A stretch of DNA of 7,904 bases from a virus (Duplodnaviria; Heunggongvirae; Uroviricota; Caudoviricetes): IMG/VR virus record IMGVR_UViG_2531839127_000025. The stretch is one strand, 5' to 3'. The translations under genes and the position numbers were made by a program. This document shows, in pieces, positions 1-7,904 of the stretch (positions are counted from its first letter, which is position 1; each line of letters begins with the position of its first letter). The notes beneath the pieces are model-generated. The model ran no database searches. It worked only from the letters and a program-made list of their open reading frames with translations, and was not told the DNA's origin.

Positions 1-87
1 GTGCTGGATTACATTGACGCGGTGACGGCAATAGATACCAGCACCGCGCCTGATATTATTTGGCCTGTATTCCCTGAGACTGATTAA
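1..87 (+). CDS. Tail-fibre assembly protein (Tfa), C-terminal end only; 5' end lies outside the window
   Basis: Frame 1 from position 1 reads VLDYIDAVTAIDTSTAPDIIWPVFPETD with a TAA stop at 85-87. The DTSTAPDI-WP tail resembles the conserved C-terminus of lambda/e14-type Tfa proteins as I recall them. Position immediately before an invertase fits a tail-fibre/Tfa module. Confidence 0.65.
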   Translation: MLDYIDAVTAIDTSTAPDIIWPVFPETD

Positions 88-316
88 CCTCAATCAGTAT
101 TGGTTCGCCTTTCTCATTAATTGTTAGCTCCATGCCCTGAGGAATTTCTGTCATAGTAAAAAACCAGTTGTCCTCCGGTAATTCAATAGCCCCGGTCACG
201 TCATGAAGACCGGGGATTACTTCAGTCAAAGTAACTGGATTAAACAGGCGCACAATAAACCCTCCATGAAAAAGCATTTGATGATGGTCTGCCGTCGTAC
301 ATCTGGCAGCGGGCAT
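56..316 (-). CDS. Small 86-aa ORF in the silent cassette, downstream of the alternative fibre segment; possible non-canonical fibre chaperone, function unknown
   Basis: Minus-strand ORF with ATG at 316-314 and an in-frame TAA five codons upstream, so it cannot be longer. It converges on and overlaps the + strand Tfa end (56-87), as in convergent Sv-U / U'-S'v cassette layouts. No recognisable Tfa C-terminal motif and no strong Shine-Dalgarno. Confidence 0.35.
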   Translation of the reverse strand: MPAARCTTADHHQMLFHGGFIVRLFNPVTLTEVIPGLHDVTGAIELPEDNWFFTMTEIPQGMELTINEKGEPILIEVNQSQGIQAK

Positions 317-595: not shown

Positions 596-649
596 TGCAG
601 AAATAACGAGCAAATGGCATCATTCCTGCTTTTGTCAGAGGGATCCACT

Positions 650-1243
650 ATGCTTATTGGCTATGTACGCGTGTCAACAAATGACCAGAACACGGAATTG
701 CAGCGTAACGCGCTGGAGTGTGCAGGATGTGAGCTGATTTTTGAGGACAAAATCAGCGGCACGAAGTCCGACAGGCCGGGACTGAAAAAACTGCTCAGGA
801 CATTATCGGAGGGGGATACACTGGTAGTCTGGAAGCTGGACCGGCTGGGGCGTAGTATGCGGCATCTGGTCATTCTGGTTGAGGAGCTGCGCGAACGCGG
901 CATTAATTTTCGCAGCCTGACGGATGCCATTGATACCAGCACGCCGATGGGGCGTTTTTTCTTTCATGTGATGGGTGCCCTGGCTGAAATGGAGCGAGAA
1001 CTCATTGTCGAGCGGACACGCGCAGGACTGGAAGCGGCCAGAGCCAAAGGTCGTATTGGTGGCAGACGACAGAAACTCACCGCGAGTGAGTGGGAGCAGG
1101 CCGGGCGTTTGCTGGCTGCAGGGGAGCCACGTCAACGCGTGGCACTGATTTTTGATATTGGTCTGTCCACGCTCTATAAAAAATTTCCCGCCTCAGTGAC
1201 AAAAAATAAATTGTGTCATCCCTTAGCCAACCGGGACAAATAG
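650..1243 (+). CDS. Serine-recombinase DNA invertase (Pin/Gin/Cin/Hin family)
   Basis: Protein from ATG 650 begins MLIGYVRVSTNDQNTELQRNAL..., with the family's catalytic-serine N-terminus, the GDTLVVWKLDRLGRS and MGRFFFHVMGALAEMERELI(V)ERT blocks, and a C-terminal HTH region (RVALIFDIGLSTLYKK). AGAGGGA Shine-Dalgarno 9-15 nt upstream. The in-frame ATG at 614 has no SD and adds a non-conserved leader. Confidence 0.92.
   Translation: MLIGYVRVSTNDQNTELQRNALECAGCELIFEDKISGTKSDRPGLKKLLRTLSEGDTLVVWKLDRLGRSMRHLVILVEELRERGINFRSLTDAIDTSTPMGRFFFHVMGALAEMERELIVERTRAGLEAARAKGRIGGRRQKLTASEWEQAGRLLAAGEPRQRVALIFDIGLSTLYKKFPASVTKNKLCHPLANRDK
1212..1240 (+). promoter_or_regulatory. Candidate late-promoter activator box (imperfect dyad TTGTGTC ... 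GACAAA) upstream of FI
   Basis: Imperfect inverted repeat roughly 60-90 bp upstream of the FI start, overlapping the 3' end of the invertase ORF. P2 late promoters carry a TGT-N12-ACA dyad for Ogr; the spacing here does not match that consensus, so this is tentative. Confidence 0.2.
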
Positions 1244-1302: not shown

Positions 1303-2493
1303 ATGAGTGACTATCATCACGGCGTGCAGGTGCTGGAGATTAACGACGGCCCCCGCGTCATTTCCACCGTATCCACTGCCATTGTCGGCATGGTCTGCAC
1401 GGCCAGCGATGCGGATGCGGAAACCTTCCCCCTCAATAAACCTGTGCTGATTACCAATGTGCAGAGCGCAATTGCAAAGGCCGGTAAAAAAGGCACGCTG
1501 GCGGCATCGTTGCAGGCCATCGCTGACCAGTCAAAACCGGTCACCGTTGTCGTGCGCGTGGAAGACGGCACCGGCGACGACGAAGAAACGAAACTCGCGC
1601 AGACCGTTTCCAATATCATCGGCACCACCGACGAAAACGGTCAGTACACCGGGCTAAAAGCCCTGCTGGCGGCGGAGTCGGTAACCGGTGTTAAACCGCG
1701 TATTCTCGGTGTGCCGGGGCTGGATACCAAAGAGGTGGCTGTTGCACTGGCATCCGTCTGTCAGAAGCTGCGCGCTTTCGGGTATATCAGCGCATGGGGC
1801 TGTAAAACCATTTCCGAGGTGAAAGCCTACCGCCAGAATTTCAGCCAGCGTGAGCTGATGGTCATCTGGCCGGATTTCCTCGCATGGGATACGGTCACCA
1901 GTACCACCGCCACCGCGTATGCCACCGCCCGTGCGCTGGGTCTGCGTGCCAAAATCGACCAGGAGCAGGGCTGGCATAAAACGCTGTCCAACGTCGGGGT
2001 GAACGGTGTTACCGGCATCAGCGCCTCTGTATTCTGGGATTTGCAGGAGTCCGGCACCGATGCTGACCTGCTTAACGAGTCAGGCGTCACAACGCTGATT
2101 CGCCGTGACGGTTTCCGCTTCTGGGGTAACCGTACCTGCTCTGATGACCCGCTGTTCCTCTTTGAAAACTACCCCCGCACCGCGCAGGTGCTGGCCGACA
2201 CGATGGCTGAGGCGCATATGTGGGCGGTGGACAAGCCTGTCACCGCAACGCTGATTCGCGACATCGTTGACGGCATCAATGCCAAATTCCGTGAGCTGAA
2301 AACAAACGGCTATATCGTGGATGCGACCTGCTGGTTCAGCGAAGAATCCAACGATGCGGAAACCCTCAAGGCCGGAAAACTGTATATCGACTACGACTAT
2401 ACACCGGTACCTCCTCTTGAAAACCTGACCCTGCGCCAGCGTATTACCGATAAATACCTGGCAAATCTGGTCACCTCGGTTAACAGCAATTAA
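1303..2493 (+). CDS. FI: Contractile tail sheath protein (P2 gpFI-like)
   Basis: 396-aa ORF with GGAG Shine-Dalgarno 8 nt upstream. The MSDYHHGVQVLEINDG... N-terminus and overall sequence match my recollection of P2 FI. Followed immediately by the tube gene. Confidence 0.93.
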   Translation: MSDYHHGVQVLEINDGPRVISTVSTAIVGMVCTASDADAETFPLNKPVLITNVQSAIAKAGKKGTLAASLQAIADQSKPVTVVVRVEDGTGDDEETKLAQTVSNIIGTTDENGQYTGLKALLAAESVTGVKPRILGVPGLDTKEVAVALASVCQKLRAFGYISAWGCKTISEVKAYRQNFSQRELMVIWPDFLAWDTVTSTTATAYATARALGLRAKIDQEQGWHKTLSNVGVNGVTGISASVFWDLQESGTDADLLNESGVTTLIRRDGFRFWGNRTCSDDPLFLFENYPRTAQVLADTMAEAHMWAVDKPVTATLIRDIVDGINAKFRELKTNGYIVDATCWFSEESNDAETLKAGKLYIDYDYTPVPPLENLTLRQRITDKYLANLVTSVNSN

Positions 2494-2505: not shown

Positions 2506-3024
2506 ATGGCAATGCCGCGCAAACTCAAGTTAATGAACGTCTTTCTGAACGGCTACAGCTATCAGGGCGTTGCAAAGTCCGTCACGCTGCCAAAACTGAC
2601 CCGTAAGCTCGAAAACTATCGCGGTGCGGGGATGAACGGCAGCGCACCGGTAGACCTCGGCCTTGATGACGATGCGCTGTCAATGGAGTGGTCGCTCGGT
2701 GGCTTCCCGGATTCGGTTATCTGGGAGCTTTACGCCGCAACCGGTGTGGATGCCGTGCCGATTCGTTTTGCAGGCTCTTACCAGCGCGACGATACCGGCG
2801 AAACGGTGGCCGTCGAAGTGGTCATGCGTGGACGTCAGAAAGAAATCGACACCGGCGAGGGTAAACAGGGAGAAGACACCGAGTCGAAAATCTCCGTGGT
2901 CTGCACCTATTTCCGGCTGACGATGGACGGCAAGGAGCTGGTCGAAATCGACACCATCAACATGATTGAGAAGGTGAACGGCGTCGACCGGCTGGAGCAA
3001 CACCGCCGAAATATCGGCCTGTGA
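2506..3024 (+). CDS. FII: Tail tube protein (P2 gpFII-like)
   Basis: 172-aa ORF with AAGGAG Shine-Dalgarno overlapping the FI stop. Size and position (sheath-tube pair) are typical of Myoviridae; sequence resembles P2 FII. Confidence 0.92.
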   Translation: MAMPRKLKLMNVFLNGYSYQGVAKSVTLPKLTRKLENYRGAGMNGSAPVDLGLDDDALSMEWSLGGFPDSVIWELYAATGVDAVPIRFAGSYQRDDTGETVAVEVVMRGRQKEIDTGEGKQGEDTESKISVVCTYFRLTMDGKELVEIDTINMIEKVNGVDRLEQHRRNIGL

Positions 3025-3030
3025 TTTTCA

Positions 3031-3051
3031 TCCGGTCAGCCTGGCTGACCG
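3031..3051 (+). other. Perfect 9-bp stem / 3-nt loop hairpin between FII and E
   Basis: CCGGTCAGC-CTG-GCTGACCGG lies between the FII stop (3022-3024) and the E Shine-Dalgarno. No U-tract follows, so it is not a classical intrinsic terminator. Confidence 0.5.
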
Positions 3052-3080
3052 GTTAACCCTGATTCAGAAGTGAGAAAACC

Positions 3081-3356
3081 ATGAACAAAGAAAATGTGAT
3101 TACCCTGGACAATCCGGTCAAGCGTGGTGAGCAGGTTATCGAACAGGTCACGCTGATGAAACCCAATGCCGGGACGCTGCGCGGTGTCAGTCTGGCTGCG
3201 GTCGCAAACTCCGAAGTCGATGCACTGATTAAGGTGCTGCCGCGCATGACGGCACCGATGCTGACCGAGCAGGAAGTCGCCGCGCTGGAACTGCCTGACC
3301 TTGTGGCGCTGGCCGGTAAGGTGGTCGGTTTTTTGTCGCCGAACTCGGTGCAGTAA
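3081..3356 (+). CDS. E: Tail assembly chaperone (P2 gpE-like), zero-frame product
   Basis: 91-aa ORF ending ...VVGFLSPNSVQ*. Sits directly upstream of the tape-measure gene, the conserved chaperone position. Contains the slippery heptamer near its 3' end. Confidence 0.9.
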   Translation: MNKENVITLDNPVKRGEQVIEQVTLMKPNAGTLRGVSLAAVANSEVDALIKVLPRMTAPMLTEQEVAALELPDLVALAGKVVGFLSPNSVQ

Positions 3357-3508
3357 CGTTCCCGAAAAATCTGTCGGTCGATGAGCTGATGGCGGATGTG
3401 GCAGTGATATTTCACTGGCCGCCATCAGAACTGTATCCCATGAGTCTGACCGAACTCATCACATGGCGCGAAAAGGCGCTCCGGCGAAGCGGAAACACGA
3501 ATGAGTAA
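3081..3508 (+). CDS. E': Tail assembly chaperone frameshift product (P2 gpE+E'-like), made by a programmed -1 shift at 3329-3335
   Basis: Slippery heptamer T TTT TTG at 3329-3335 in X XXY YYZ phasing relative to the E frame. The -1 frame is open from there to a TAA at 3506-3508, encoding ...VAELGAVTFPKNLSVDELMADVAVIFHWPPSELYPMSLTELITWREKALRRSGNTNE, and overlaps the T start codon at 3501. Confidence 0.8.
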
Positions 3509-5948
3509 CAATGTAAAATTACAGGTATTGCTCAGGGCTGTTGACCAGGCATCCCGCCCGTTTAAATCCATCCGCACAGCGAGCAAATCGCTGTCGGGGG
3601 ATATCCGGGAAACACAAAAATCACTGCGCGAGCTGAACGGTCACGCATCCCGTATTGAGGGATTTCGCAAGACCAGCGCACAGCTCGCCGGGACTGGTCA
3701 TGCACTTGAAAAGGCACGGCAGGAGGCCGAAGCCCTTGCCACACAGTTTAAAAACACTGAACGTCCGACCCGTGCTCAGGCGAAAGTGCTGGAATCCGCA
3801 AAGCGTGCGGCGGAGGACTTACAGGCGAAATATAACCGCCTGACGGATTCCGTTAAGCGCCAGCAGCGGGAACTGGCCGCTGTGGGAATTAATACCCGCA
3901 ATCTTGCACATGATGAGCAGGGACTGAAAAACCGTATCAGTGAAACCACCGCACAGCTTAACCGGCAGCGTGACGCGCTGGCGCGTGTCAGTGCGCAACA
4001 GGCAAAACTTAATGCAGTAAAACAGCGTTATCAGGCCGGAAAGGAACTGGCCGGAAATATGGCCTCGGTGGGCGCTGCCGGTGTGGGGATTGCGGCGGCG
4101 GGAACGATGGCCGGAGTTAAGTTGCTGATGCCCGGTTATGAGTTTGCGCAGAAAAACTCAGAATTGCAGGCCGTGCTCGGAGTGGCAAAAGACTCCGCCG
4201 AAATGACCGCACTACGCAAACAGGCGCGCCAGCTCGGCGACAATACCGCCGCCTCGGCGGATGATGCGGCCGGTGCACAGATAATCATCGCGAAAGCGGG
4301 TGGGGATGTTGATGCCATTCAGGCGGCAACGCCGGTCACGCTGAATATGGCGCTGGCGAACCGCCGCACGATGGAAGAAAACGCCGCCCTGCTGATGGGG
4401 ATGAAATCCGCCTTTCAGCTTTCAAACGATAAGGTCGCTCATATCGGGGATGTTCTCTCCATGACGATGAACAAAACCGCCGCCGATTTTGACGGCATGA
4501 GTGATGCGCTGACCTATGCCGCACCTGTGGCAAAAAATGCCGGTGTCAGCATTGAAGAAACCGCCGCAATGGTCGGGGCGCTGCATGATGCAAAAATCAC
4601 AGGCTCAATGGCGGGGACGGGAAGCCGTGCCGTGTTAAGCCGCCTGCAGGCACCGACGGGAAAAGCATGGGATGCACTCAAAGAGCTTGGAGTGAAAACC
4701 TCAGACAGCAAAGGAAACACCCGGCCAATATTTACCATTCTGAAAGAAATGCAGGCCAGTTTTGAGAAAAACCGGCTCGGTACTGCCCAGCAGGCTGAAT
4801 ACATGAAAACTATTTTCGGGGAGGAGGCCAGCTCAGCCGCCGCCGTGCTGATGACTGCCGCCTCAACCGGAAAGCTGGACAAACTGACCGCTGCGTTTAA
4901 AGCCTCAGACGGGAAGACCGCCGAGCTGGTAAATATCATGCAGGATAACCTCGGCGGTGACTTTAAGGAGTTTCAGTCCGCTTATGAGGCGGTGGGGACA
5001 GACCTGTTTGACCAGCAGGAAGGCGCACTGCGTAAGCTCACTCAGACGGCCACAAAGTATGTGTTAAAACTCGACGGCTGGATCCAGAAAAACAAATCAC
5101 TGGCGTCAACCATCGGCCTCATTGTCGGTGGCGCGCTGGCGCTTATTGGCATCATCGGTGCCATTGGTCTTGTAGCCTGGCCGGTTATCACCGGCATCAA
5201 TGCCATTATCGCGGCAGCAGGCGCAATGGGGGCAATCTTCATGACGGTTGGCAGTGCTGTTATGACGGCCATCGGGGCGATTAGCTGGCCGGTTGTGGCC
5301 GTGGTGGCCGCCATTGTCTCCGGGGCGTTGCTTATCCGTAAATACTGGGAGCCTGTCAGCGCATTCTTTGGCGGTGTGGTTGAAGGGCTGAAAACGGCAT
5401 TTGCGCCGGTGGGGGAACTTTTCACGCCACTTAAGCCGGTGTTTGACTGGCTGGGCGAAAAGTTACAGGCCGCGTGGCAGTGGTTTACAAACCTGATTGC
5501 CCCGGTTAAAGCCACACAGGACACCATGAACCGTTGCCGTGACACGGGCGTCATGTTCGGGCAGGCGCTGGCTGACGCGCTGATGCTGCCGCTTAATGCG
5601 TTCAACAAACTGCGCAGCGGTATTGACTGGGTACTGGAAAAACTCGGTGTTATCAACAAAGAGTCAGACACACTTGACCAGACCGCCGCAAGGACTCATG
5701 CCGCCACGTATGGCACCGGTGGTTACATTCCGGCGACCAGCTCTTATGCAGGCTATCAGGCTTATCAGCCGGTCACGGCACCGGCTGGCCGCTCTTATGT
5801 GGACCAGAGTAAAAACGAATATCACATCAGCCTGACGGGTGGTACTGCGCCGGGGACACAGCTTGACCGCCAGTTACAGGATGCGCTCGAAAAATACGAG
5901 CGGGATAAACGTGCGCGCGCCCGTGCCAGCATGATGCATGACGGTTAA
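3501..5948 (+). CDS. T: Tail tape measure protein (P2 gpT-like)
   Basis: 815-aa ORF directly after the E/E' chaperone pair. N-terminal region is rich in charged, coiled-coil-like residues; a long Gly/Ala/Ile hydrophobic segment is encoded around 5098-5340. Confidence 0.93.
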   Translation: MSNNVKLQVLLRAVDQASRPFKSIRTASKSLSGDIRETQKSLRELNGHASRIEGFRKTSAQLAGTGHALEKARQEAEALATQFKNTERPTRAQAKVLESAKRAAEDLQAKYNRLTDSVKRQQRELAAVGINTRNLAHDEQGLKNRISETTAQLNRQRDALARVSAQQAKLNAVKQRYQAGKELAGNMASVGAAGVGIAAAGTMAGVKLLMPGYEFAQKNSELQAVLGVAKDSAEMTALRKQARQLGDNTAASADDAAGAQIIIAKAGGDVDAIQAATPVTLNMALANRRTMEENAALLMGMKSAFQLSNDKVAHIGDVLSMTMNKTAADFDGMSDALTYAAPVAKNAGVSIEETAAMVGALHDAKITGSMAGTGSRAVLSRLQAPTGKAWDALKELGVKTSDSKGNTRPIFTILKEMQASFEKNRLGTAQQAEYMKTIFGEEASSAAAVLMTAASTGKLDKLTAAFKASDGKTAELVNIMQDNLGGDFKEFQSAYEAVGTDLFDQQEGALRKLTQTATKYVLKLDGWIQKNKSLASTIGLIVGGALALIGIIGAIGLVAWPVITGINAIIAAAGAMGAIFMTVGSAVMTAIGAISWPVVAVVAAIVSGALLIRKYWEPVSAFFGGVVEGLKTAFAPVGELFTPLKPVFDWLGEKLQAAWQWFTNLIAPVKATQDTMNRCRDTGVMFGQALADALMLPLNAFNKLRSGIDWVLEKLGVINKESDTLDQTAARTHAATYGTGGYIPATSSYAGYQAYQPVTAPAGRSYVDQSKNEYHISLTGGTAPGTQLDRQLQDALEKYERDKRARARASMMHDG

Positions 5949-5962
5949 GGAGGTGACGAAAA

Positions 5963-6442
5963 ATGATGCTCGCGTTAGGTATGTTTGTTTTTATGCGCCA
6001 GACGCTGCCACACCAGACCATGCAGCGTGAATCAGATTATCGCTGGCCGTCAAATTCCCGTATCGGCAAACGGGATGCCTTTCAGTTTCTCGGTGTGGGT
6101 GAGGAAAACATCACGCTTGCCGGTGTGCTTTATCCTGAACTGACCGGCGGAAAGCTGACGATGACCACGCTCAGACTGATGGCAGAGGAAGGCCGGGCGT
6201 GGCCGTTGCTGGATGGCACCGGCATGATTTACGGCATGTATGTCATCAGCAGGGTGAGTGAAACAGGGAGTATTTTCTTTGCAGACGGCACACCCCGGAA
6301 AATTGATTTTACGCTGTCGCTCACCCGCGTTGATGAATCACTGGCCGCGCTTTATGGCGATATCGGTAAACAGGCGGAATCGCTCATCGGTAAGGCTTGC
6401 AGTATGGCGACTAAATTCACGGGTATGACGGGGGCGGGATAA
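5963..6442 (+). CDS. U: Tail protein U (P2 gpU-like)
   Basis: 159-aa ORF with AAGGAGGTG Shine-Dalgarno upstream. Its stop overlaps the D start (TAATG). Conserved position after the tape measure. Confidence 0.88.
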   Translation: MMLALGMFVFMRQTLPHQTMQRESDYRWPSNSRIGKRDAFQFLGVGEENITLAGVLYPELTGGKLTMTTLRLMAEEGRAWPLLDGTGMIYGMYVISRVSETGSIFFADGTPRKIDFTLSLTRVDESLAALYGDIGKQAESLIGKACSMATKFTGMTGAG

Positions 6443-7605
6443 TGCTGGATGCACTGACATTTGATGCAGGCAGTACGCTGACGCCGGATTACATGCTGAT
6501 GCTCGACAGCAGGGATATTACCGGCAATATCAGCGACCGTCTGATGAGTATGACCCTGACGGATAACCGGGGTTTTGAGGCTGACCAGCTTGATATTGAA
6601 CTGAACGATGCCGACGGGCAGGTCGGGCTGCCGGTTCGTGGCGCTGTCCTGACGGTGTATATCGGCTGGAAAGGTTTTGCCCTGGTATGCAAAGGGAAAT
6701 TCACCGTTGATGAGGTAGAACACCGGGGCGCGCCGGATGTGGTCACCATCCGCGCCCGGAGTGCAGATTTTCGCGGGACGCTCAATTCCCGCCGTGAAGG
6801 CTCCTGGCATGACACCACGCTCGGTGCGATTGTTGAGGCGATAGCCTCCCGTAACAGGCTGGAAGCCAGTGTCGCGCCGTCACTGGCCGGAATTAAAATC
6901 CCGCACATCGACCAGTCGCAGGAGTCTGATGCAAAATTCCTGACCCGCCTTGCTGAACGCAACGGCGGTGAGGTGTCGGTAAAAATGGGAAAACTGTTGT
7001 TTCTCAAAGCGGGGCAGGGGGTGACGGCCAGCGGTAAAAAAATCCCGCAGGTCACCATCACCCGCAGCGACGGCGACCGTCATCATTTTGCGATTGCTGA
7101 TCGTGGAGCCTACACCGGCGTAACGGCAAAGTGGTTACACACCAAAGACCCGAAGCCGCAAAAGCAGAAGGTAAAACTGAAACGCAAAAAGAAAGAGAAA
7201 CACCTGCGCGCACTGGAGCACCCGAAAGCAAAACCGGTCACGCAGAAGAAAGCGCCAAAAGTACCGGAAGCGCGCGAAGGTGAATACATGGCCGGTGAAG
7301 CTGACAACGTTTTTGCCCTGACCACGGTATATGCCACAAAAGCGCAGGCTATGCGCGCCGCTCAGGCGAAGTGGGACAAACTGCAACGGGGCGTTGCGGA
7401 GTTCTCCATCAGCCTGGCTACTGGTCGGGCAGATATTTACACGGAAACGCCGGTCAAAGTGTCAGGCTTTAAGCGCGTCATAGACGAGCAGGACTGGACA
7501 ATCACTAAGGTGACACATTTTCTGAATAATAGCGGCTTCACGACGTCCCTGGAGCTTGAGGTCAGGCTTTCTGATGTGGAGTACGAAACAGAAGATGATG
7601 AGTGA
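6442..7605 (+). CDS. D: Tail protein D (P2 gpD-like)
   Basis: 387-aa ORF translationally coupled to U. Contains a Lys-rich basic segment (KDPKPQKQKVKLKRKKKEKHLRALEHPKAKP...) encoded at about 7140-7270. Last gene of the F operon in P2 gene order. Confidence 0.88.
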   Translation: MLDALTFDAGSTLTPDYMLMLDSRDITGNISDRLMSMTLTDNRGFEADQLDIELNDADGQVGLPVRGAVLTVYIGWKGFALVCKGKFTVDEVEHRGAPDVVTIRARSADFRGTLNSRREGSWHDTTLGAIVEAIASRNRLEASVAPSLAGIKIPHIDQSQESDAKFLTRLAERNGGEVSVKMGKLLFLKAGQGVTASGKKIPQVTITRSDGDRHHFAIADRGAYTGVTAKWLHTKDPKPQKQKVKLKRKKKEKHLRALEHPKAKPVTQKKAPKVPEAREGEYMAGEADNVFALTTVYATKAQAMRAAQAKWDKLQRGVAEFSISLATGRADIYTETPVKVSGFKRVIDEQDWTITKVTHFLNNSGFTTSLELEVRLSDVEYETEDDE

Positions 7606-7609
7606 TGTT

Positions 7610-7685
7610 TTATTTTATCTATTTGTTTTGTAAGGATAAATTAACTAAAATGGCACCATCAACAAAACCGGAAGAGGTGCTCGCG
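7610..7685 (+). promoter_or_regulatory. AT-rich intergenic region likely holding the ogr promoter and ribosome-binding site
   Basis: AT-rich stretch between the D stop and the ogr ATG, with TTGTTT/TTGTAA and TAAATT/TAAAAT hexamers and a GGAAGAGGTG purine tract 6-15 nt before the ATG at 7686. Exact -35/-10 not assignable by eye. Confidence 0.3.
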
Positions 7686-7904
7686 ATGTTTCATTGTCCT
7701 TTATGCCAGCATGCCGCACATGCGCGTACAAGCCGCTATATCACTGACACGACAAAAGAGCGTTATCACCAGTGTCAGAACGTGAATTGCAGCGCCACGT
7801 TCATCACTTATGAGTCGGTACAGCGATATATCGTGAAGCCGGGAGAAGTCCACGCCGTAAGGCCGCACCCGTTGCCATCAGGGCAGCAAATTATGTGGAT
7901 GTAA
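7686..7904 (+). CDS. ogr: Late-gene transcriptional activator Ogr (Cys4 zinc-finger, Ogr/Delta family)
   Basis: 72-aa product MFHCPLCQHAAHARTSRYITDTTKERYHQCQNVNCSATF... with a CxxC-N22-CxxxxC zinc-finger arrangement, matching Ogr as I recall it. Follows gene D as in P2. The stop codon is the last three bases of the window. Confidence 0.9.
   Translation: MFHCPLCQHAAHARTSRYITDTTKERYHQCQNVNCSATFITYESVQRYIVKPGEVHAVRPHPLPSGQQIMWM

Follow-up and report, generated by a model that had tools for sequence, protein, structure and literature searches.

The stretch of DNA analysed here, referred to below as the window, comprises 7,904 nucleotides of the IMG/VR record IMGVR_UViG_2531839127_000025 and is, judged by its gene content, the FI-FII-E-E'-T-U-D-ogr tail operon of a P2-like (Peduovirus) prophage. 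Its Pfam domains follow one another in the order sheath, tube, Phage_TAC_7, tape measure, GpU, GpD and Ogr/Delta, which is the order of phage P2 (NC_001895). Identity to P2 over window positions 2651-7904 amounts to 97%, and to 98-99% in the frameshift region with which we are concerned here. The 531 bases around the frameshift site (window 3030-3560) are 95-99% identical to those of 74 Peduovirus records, P2 included, and 100% identical in prophages of E. coli ATCC 8739 and QEC11-421; of 5426 complete E. coli genomes, 1583 (29%) carry the frameshift region. FII (tube) and T (tape measure) flank the E/E' pair (Table 1).

The two ends of the window merit a separate remark. Positions 1-1243, upstream of FI, resemble an invertible tail-fibre cassette, and the homologous place in E. 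coli ATCC 8739 is annotated with tail protein and tfa on the plus strand, tfaE and tail protein on the minus strand and a recombinase on the plus strand. P2 lacks this invertase/tail-fibre cassette and carries other cargo upstream of FI. At the opposite end, the mechanically called ORF of ogr starts at GTG 7602 and has 100 aa (window 7602-7904); the start compatible with the Ogr/Delta domain, and with the gene as annotated in P2 and RefSeq (219 nt), is ATG 7686, with a Shine-Dalgarno (SD) duplex of -7.1 kcal/mol. The window ends exactly with the ogr stop codon.

Table 1. Features at and around the frameshift site, with window positions except in the last row, which gives locus positions.
Feature	Position	Strand	Basis
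Further ORF beside the invertase cassette	56-316	-	PHROG 5400
Tail-fibre C-terminal segment	240-623	-	PHROG 2557/2712
Hin/Gin-type DNA invertase	614-1243	+	Resolvase + HTH_7, PHROG 125
Sheath	1303-2493		Pfam
FII, tail tube gene; upstream neighbour defining the chaperone position	2506..3024	+	Pfam Phage_tube, E 2.3e-60
Gene E, 91-aa tail assembly chaperone (standard decoding)	3081..3356	+	ORF; Pfam Phage_TAC_7; PHROG 103
SD-like AAGGTGG, possible modulator (putative), 4-5 nt 5' of heptamer	3318..3324	+	Anti-SD duplex, conservation
Slippery heptamer T_TTT_TTG (P site UUU, A site UUG)	3329..3335	+	In phase; same site as P2 misc_feature
E' segment, 57 codons in the -1 frame + TAA; predicted to be translated only as C-terminal extension of E	3335..3508	+	Translation, Pfam, PHROG
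E+E', 142 aa	join(3081..3335,3335..3508)	+	Translation
ATGAGTAA, T start overlapping the E' stop; candidate termination-reinitiation junction	3501..3508	+	Sequence
T, tape measure gene; downstream neighbour	3501..5948	+	Pfam PhageMin_Tail, E 2.4e-45; annotated T in P2
Heptamer-variant loci among relatives	L016 652-658; L015 634-640; L018 628-634; L028, L083 695-701; L057 692-698; L065 ~690-700

Bases 3329-3335 read TTTTTTG, i.e., the slippery heptamer T_TTT_TTG in gene E. Position 3330 is the start of an E codon ((3330-3081) mod 3 = 0; zero-frame codons GGT TTT TTG) and the heptamer is, therefore, in exact X_XXY_YYZ phase. Read from G3335, the -1 frame contains 57 sense codons (VAELGAV...RSGNTNE; VAELGAVTFPKNLSVDELMADVAVIFHWPPSELYPMSLTELITWREKALRRSGNTNE) and stops at the TAA at 3506-3508. 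On its upstream side it is closed by a TAA at 3317-3319, 9 nt 5' of the heptamer, and it is open from 3320; no ATG, GTG or TTG start codon was found in this frame between 3320 and 3389. In the zero frame, six sense codons of E (SPNSVQ) are left after the heptamer before its stop codon TAA at 3354-3356. The T start and the E' stop overlap by 8 nt, the TAA starting at base 6 of T. The phasing of the heptamer and the run of 57 codons overlapping the T start had been put forward in an earlier note on this DNA; recomputation of coordinates and phase and translation of the -1 frame bear out both. Its remark that a simple ORF track misses the extended chaperone also holds, as an ORF listing at 40 aa shows nothing there and RefSeq has only a 39-aa fragment.

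The plus strand genes of the window (2236 codons) contain seven in-phase X_XXY_YYZ heptamers, of which only the one at 3329-3335 is followed by a long -1 run (57 codons versus 0-33) and only this one lies within 7 codons of the end of its gene. From the stop frequency in this frame, the chance of a -1 run of at least 57 codons is approximately 0.026. Since an open run of this length is not very rare by composition, the case for a frameshift rests on homology and conservation.

The closest known system is that of phage P2 (Christie, Temple, Bartlett & Goodwin 2002, J Bacteriol 184:6522; NC_001895; NP_046780.1/NP_046781.1; O64312 TAPFS_BPP2). Besides E, the record NC_001895 carries a CDS joined as E+E' ([quoted passage not shown]), and it marks the homologous base of the heptamer as "site of -1 translational frameshift". 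With its junction GFL-VAE, the P2 version of the fusion is identical to NP_046780.1/O64312 (Tail assembly protein E'), and the junction peptide ...VVGFL/VAELGAV... predicted in the earlier note has the same junction as this protein. P2 and the window have in common the operon order, an E of 91 aa, an E+E' of 142 aa, T_TTT_TTG at the same codon, the junction GFL/VAE and the ATGAGTAA overlap with T. The fusion of the window differs from that of P2 in two residues (N29 vs S and E103 vs D), and the stop codon of E is TAA in the window vs TGA in P2 (window 3355 A, P2 G). For P2 it has been described that the 142-aa product is made from the E start via a -1 shift at TTTTTTG, the products having 91 and 142 aa (PMC3091744, PMC3931495).

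The domain content of the fusion agrees with this assignment. Its E part matches Pfam Phage_TAC_7 (residues 7-85, E 1.5e-12) and its -1 part Pfam Phage_P2_GpE (residues 104-139, E 1.2e-21), both above the gathering threshold, and the PHROG matches are PHROG 103 tail protein for E (E 2.6e-45) and PHROG 1756 for E' (E 1.8e-27). The exact E protein occurs on at least 1000 contigs. All defining features of the P2 E/E+E' system that can be assessed on sequence are present here. Thus, the site is the already known programmed -1 frameshift of P2, in which E and E+E' arise from one start codon; it is ordinary and not new, and conservation of the P2 E/E' frameshift, as proposed earlier, is upheld in that site, frame and junction are those annotated for P2. 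In the experiments on P2 by Christie and co-workers in 2002 the fusion was reportedly detected, the frameshift efficiency is said to have been about 10%, and E' reportedly proved essential.

To assess conservation, relatives of two kinds were compared, i.e., 17 diverse phages (31-82% identity, P2 included) of Klebsiella, Salmonella, Yersinia, Burkholderia, Ralstonia, Halomonas, Aeromonas, Vibrio, Acidovorax and Arsenophonus, and 80 prophages from different species-level genomes, the loci of which were found in genome contigs by an E' alignment search. An in-phase slippery heptamer, mostly T_TTT_TTG, is kept in 96 of these 97 relatives, and the protein of the -1 frame is conserved in all 97, ending at or near the T start. 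The earlier note had named a lack of the -1 ORF in relatives as evidence that would speak against a frameshift; instead, ORF and heptamer are conserved together in 96 of the 97. A tblastn search with the fusion matched 418 phage records, of which 401 covered at least 80% of it, and among the 60 matches listed each full-length match consisted of two pieces, one per frame. The -1 product is conserved across phages of Enterobacterales, Burkholderia, Ralstonia, Vibrio, Aeromonas and Acidovorax.

All 17 diverse phages have an in-phase heptamer near the end of E, which is T_TTT_TTG in 14 (incl. P2), T_TTT_TTC in two and A_AAT_TTT in P88_4B11. Their -1 ORFs have 53-71 codons and share the motif ADIAxIFHWPPSE...WRE.A..RSG, whereas the zero-frame tails after the heptamer (2-22 aa) are unconserved and mutually unrelated. 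For the 80 prophages the heptamer is in phase as TTTTTTG in 76, as TTTTTTA in two and as TTTTTTC in one; it is broken in one, and E' has 57-62 codons in all. The relatives with T_TTT_TTC are VHML, Aeromonas 59.1 and Serratia sp. H1w, and those with T_TTT_TTA are prophages of Yersinia frederiksenii and Rouxiella aceris. The broken site, that of Enterobacter sp. EA-1 (L065), has five T only, which puts E' beyond the reach of a -1 shift, so that this locus represents either a defective prophage or a homopolymer error.

The pattern of substitutions also bears on the decoding of the site. In 78 relatives the heptamer codons GGT, TTT and TTG are 97-100% fixed, and the three synonymous positions of the heptamer 96-100%, against 34-90% for the other degenerate codons of E, except for the AAG GTG upstream of the heptamer (see below). 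In the stretch that belongs to E' only, i.e., from the E stop to the T start, changes relative to six relatives are concentrated at the third codon positions of the -1 frame and are mostly synonymous in that frame only; for Kp4886-2, for example, there are 8 synonymous and 6 non-synonymous changes in the -1 frame vs 1/14 and 1/13 in the other frames. This stretch is, therefore, protein-coding in the -1 frame, though without a start of its own.

RefSeq/PGAP deals with the region differently, splitting it between a "phage tail assembly protein" of 91 aa and a "GpE family phage tail protein" of 39 aa (window 3389-3508; 4760-4879 in locus L099). Taken literally, this makes E' a separate small gene translated from the internal ATG 3389 with no frameshift involved. 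A 39-aa ORF starting with ATG does exist; it is annotated in this way in E. coli ATCC 8739 and carries this name on at least approximately 1000 contigs. However, ATG 3389 has no SD sequence (-2.4 kcal/mol, which is the background level), and the 18 codons of the -1 frame that precede it show conservation at the protein level (F, P, L, V, D, D and L at 87-100%) with normal synonymous variation. Moreover, distant relatives in which heptamer and ORF are preserved have V, E, A, W, I or T in place of its Met. The fixed synonymous sites of the heptamer, and the P2 reference and UniProt, which give the fusion, also argue against an independent start of E'. We consider translation from ATG 3389 very improbable, and the annotation as a 39-aa "GpE family phage tail protein" is spurious. 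A related observation concerns the hypothetical GTG start of E' that has been discussed for P2 (PMC3931495): the A at window position 3355 changes this GTG to GTA, a silent substitution in the E' frame, and consequently the hypothetical start is removed in the window.

Alternatively, the frames could be joined by transcriptional slippage, with RNA polymerase adding one U on the T6 run and the edited mRNA encoding ...GFFVAE.... The site is indeed a homopolymer run, and variants fused in frame do occur in public assemblies, viz. GFFVAE (QTN08932.1) and GFVAE (P0039), which may be sequencing errors. But a T6 run is short compared with the runs of approximately 9 A or T for which efficient bacterial slippage is described (PMC5009743). 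The 3' G of the heptamer is kept in 76 of 80 loci and the flanking GGT in 100%, features that matter for the re-pairing of tRNAs but not for slippage of the polymerase, and the relative P88_4B11 uses A_AAT_TTT, which is not a homopolymer yet a proper X_XXY_YYZ. In addition, the junction residue of the reference protein is Leu, not Phe. Taken together, this makes transcriptional slippage barely credible at this site. With respect to the fused assemblies as such, GFFVAE (142 aa) needs T7 and GFVAE (141 aa; 22 member sequences, Logan assemblies) needs T4, and these and other in-frame fusions (P0016, P0039, P0042 and others) are most simply homopolymer length errors, although they could be fused mutants or traces of slippage. 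Finally, stop-free -1 runs of at least 57 codons do arise by chance in this GC-rich operon (4/139, P ~0.026), but a mere coincidence of composition without function is ruled out by the Pfam/PHROG matches of the -1 product, its broad conservation and the frame-specific substitutions.

The reading that we retain is a -1 ribosomal frameshift at T_TTT_TTG, by which this P2-like prophage would, on the strength of its sequence almost certainly, make the tail chaperones E and E+E'. Ribosomes translating E would reach GGU UUU UUG with the P-site tRNA-Phe paired to UUU and the A-site tRNA-Leu to UUG. The majority would stay in frame, add SPNSVQ and terminate at 3354-3356, yielding the 91-aa E. A minority (reported as ~10% for P2) would slip back by one base, the two tRNAs re-pairing on UUU UUU, for which the sequence is suitable, as both the P-site UUU and the A-site UUG can be matched one base back on UUU UUU. 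Decoding would then resume at GUC (3335) in the -1 frame and continue for 57 codons, resulting in the 142-aa E+E' (...VVGFL-VAELGAV...), with the junction peptide ...VVGFLVAELGAVTFPK expected from ribosomal -1 slippage. Translation of E+E' would end at TAA 3506-3508 inside the start of T, and ribosomes terminating at this stop may reinitiate at the overlapping ATG of T, which itself is almost devoid of an SD sequence. By analogy with lambda G/GT, the shared E part would coat the tape measure protein and the rarer E' part would recruit the tube protein, so that a fixed ratio of E to E+E' would be set by recoding; on the same analogy neither E nor E+E' is expected in the virion. We infer both this chaperone mechanism, which is transferred from lambda, and the coupling of E' to T.

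The comparison with lambda G/GT and the tail frameshift of long-tailed phages (Levin, Hendrix & Casjens 1993; Xu, Hendrix & Duda 2004, 2013, 2014) needs some qualification. The likeness consists in the position of the genes, flanked by the major tail/tube gene on one side and the tape measure gene on the other, and in a -1 shift at a heptamer close to where the first ORF ends, which gives a minor, longer product with the same N-terminus. The proposed role, to provide a fixed ratio of two chaperones, is also shared; in lambda G/GT the short product binds the tape measure and the extension the tube protein, with neither of them in the virion (PMC5009743). Unlike lambda, the host of the present site is a contractile-tail phage, and the frameshift efficiency in P2 and its relatives is reported to be 2-3-fold above lambda's roughly 1:30 (PMC5009743).

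At the level of sequence and structure, no PDB sequence match for the fusion was obtained at E <= 1, and no Pfam match beyond Phage_TAC_7 and Phage_P2_GpE. An AlphaFold model (pLDDT 85, pTM 0.74) had no significant fold match in the PDB, the best Foldseek match having an E of only 0.96, in a PDB-wide search that was not a direct comparison to lambda G/GT; fold matches in BFVD were only to E-like and tape-measure-chaperone predictions. Since neither sequence nor fold leads to a solved homologue, the link with lambda G/GT is one of analogy and synteny and not of shown homology. The suggestion that the site conserves lambda G/GT thus stands for gene position and recoding logic, but similarity in sequence or fold to solved chaperones was not found. 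The heptamers also differ, that of lambda being G_GGA_AAG and that of the window T_TTT_TTG. In lambda, furthermore, the T ORF ends before gene H and has no start overlap of the ATGAGTAA kind.

We also searched for elements that could stimulate the shift. Downstream of the heptamer, sequences of 50-70 nt fold like their shuffled versions (z ~0, 0.1-0.3), and no shared downstream RNA structure was found among 18 relatives. The absence of a 3' structure agrees with statements made for P2 (PMC3091744). Two candidates were rejected. A 5-bp hairpin, CGCCG/CGGTG, lies 2 nt after the heptamer, which is too close, and is a by-product of the Ala GCC and Gly GGC codons. Folds of 100-110 nt have a modestly lowered z (-2.2 to -2.9), owing to a 10-bp perfect inverted repeat in E' (3386-3395/3420-3429; CTGATGGCGG / CCGCCATCAG), ~51 nt 3' of the heptamer; as a conserved stimulator this repeat was discarded, since none but the closest relatives retain it, and in others the same MADIA codons give rise to different local stems. 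As far as the sequence can tell, there is no canonical stimulator here that would account for the efficiency.

On the 5' side, the 16 nt before the heptamer pair with the 3' end of 16S rRNA at -8.4 kcal/mol in the window, and in 76 relatives the median is -7.7 kcal/mol vs -1.7 for other 16-mers of the same genes. This duplex, formed by the SD-like AAGGTGG, is as strong as those of the real ribosome-binding sites of this operon. The synonymous sites of its AAG and GTG codons are 98% and 96% fixed in 78 relatives, against no more than 90% for the other degenerate codons outside the heptamer, and AAA is the usual Lys codon in the remainder of E. Among distant lineages, Fels-2, Ralstonia and Acidovorax have the element, and VHML, P88, phiT5282H and Halomonas lack it. 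The conserved AAGGTGG is apparently an unreported detail and may be new, but it is a minor one.

The frameshift cassette of E. coli dnaX and the IS3 family, composed of a 5' SD-like stimulator, a heptamer and a 3' stem-loop, offers a comparison for this arrangement. Tandem -1 slippage on X_XXY_YYZ and an SD-like sequence upstream are common to both. However, nothing here corresponds to the stable stem-loop or pseudoknot that dnaX/IS3 have at 5-9 nt downstream of the heptamer (z 0.1-0.3; none shared among 18 relatives), and the heptamer is U-rich instead of A_AAA_AAG. The spacing of the SD-like sequence is also different, i.e., 4-5 nt here and ~10-14 nt in dnaX/IS3. In dnaX the stimulating spacing is 10-14 nt, and Larsen and colleagues are said to have put the distance between SD and heptamer at ~10 nt in 1994.

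With regard to the start of T, the earlier note had stated that this gene lacks a strong SD, and this is confirmed: the anti-SD duplex of T (-3.5 kcal/mol) is the weakest of the operon and about at background (mean -3.0 kcal/mol), compared with -5.0 for E, -6.1 for FI, -8.4 for FII, -8.6 for D and -13.4 kcal/mol for U. The T SD is weak in 77 of 78 prophages, in all of which the E' stop overlaps the T start. In 64 of 79 prophages the ATG of T precedes the E' stop by 5 nt, and most of the others have ATGAGCAATAA. In three distant phages (L015, L017 and L018), where stop and start are separated by a gap of 25-52 nt, also given as 38-52 nt, the T SD values are -5.8, -8.3 and -9.4 kcal/mol, so that it is strong (-8.3 and -9.4) in two of the three, a small sample. 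It is plausible, and reasonable to deduce from these sequences, that the overlap with E' explains the weak SD of T, and that termination-reinitiation would couple T to the frameshifted minority of ribosomes.

A more far-reaching proposal would be that the SD-like AAGGTGG is an unrecognised 5' cis-element tuning P2-type frameshifting, with the corollary that reinitiation at ATGAGTAA by ribosomes that have frameshifted would be the main gate for T. We regard this as speculative and rather unlikely. If it were true, the element might, for example, hold the ribosome over the U-run, helping to explain the 2-3-fold higher efficiency relative to lambda without a 3' structure, and the gating of T through reinitiation would tie the dosage of the tape measure to that of E+E'.

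The importance of the site lies mainly in annotation, as the frameshift product is routinely left out in E. coli genomes; as a consequence of the split annotation in RefSeq, the 142-aa E+E' is missing from most proteomes. What our analysis adds to the known picture is limited to the comparative numbers and the minor observation on the SD-like sequence. For the biology of these phages, the E/E+E' pair represents a clean and very widely conserved example of recoding that would fix the ratio of two assembly chaperones.
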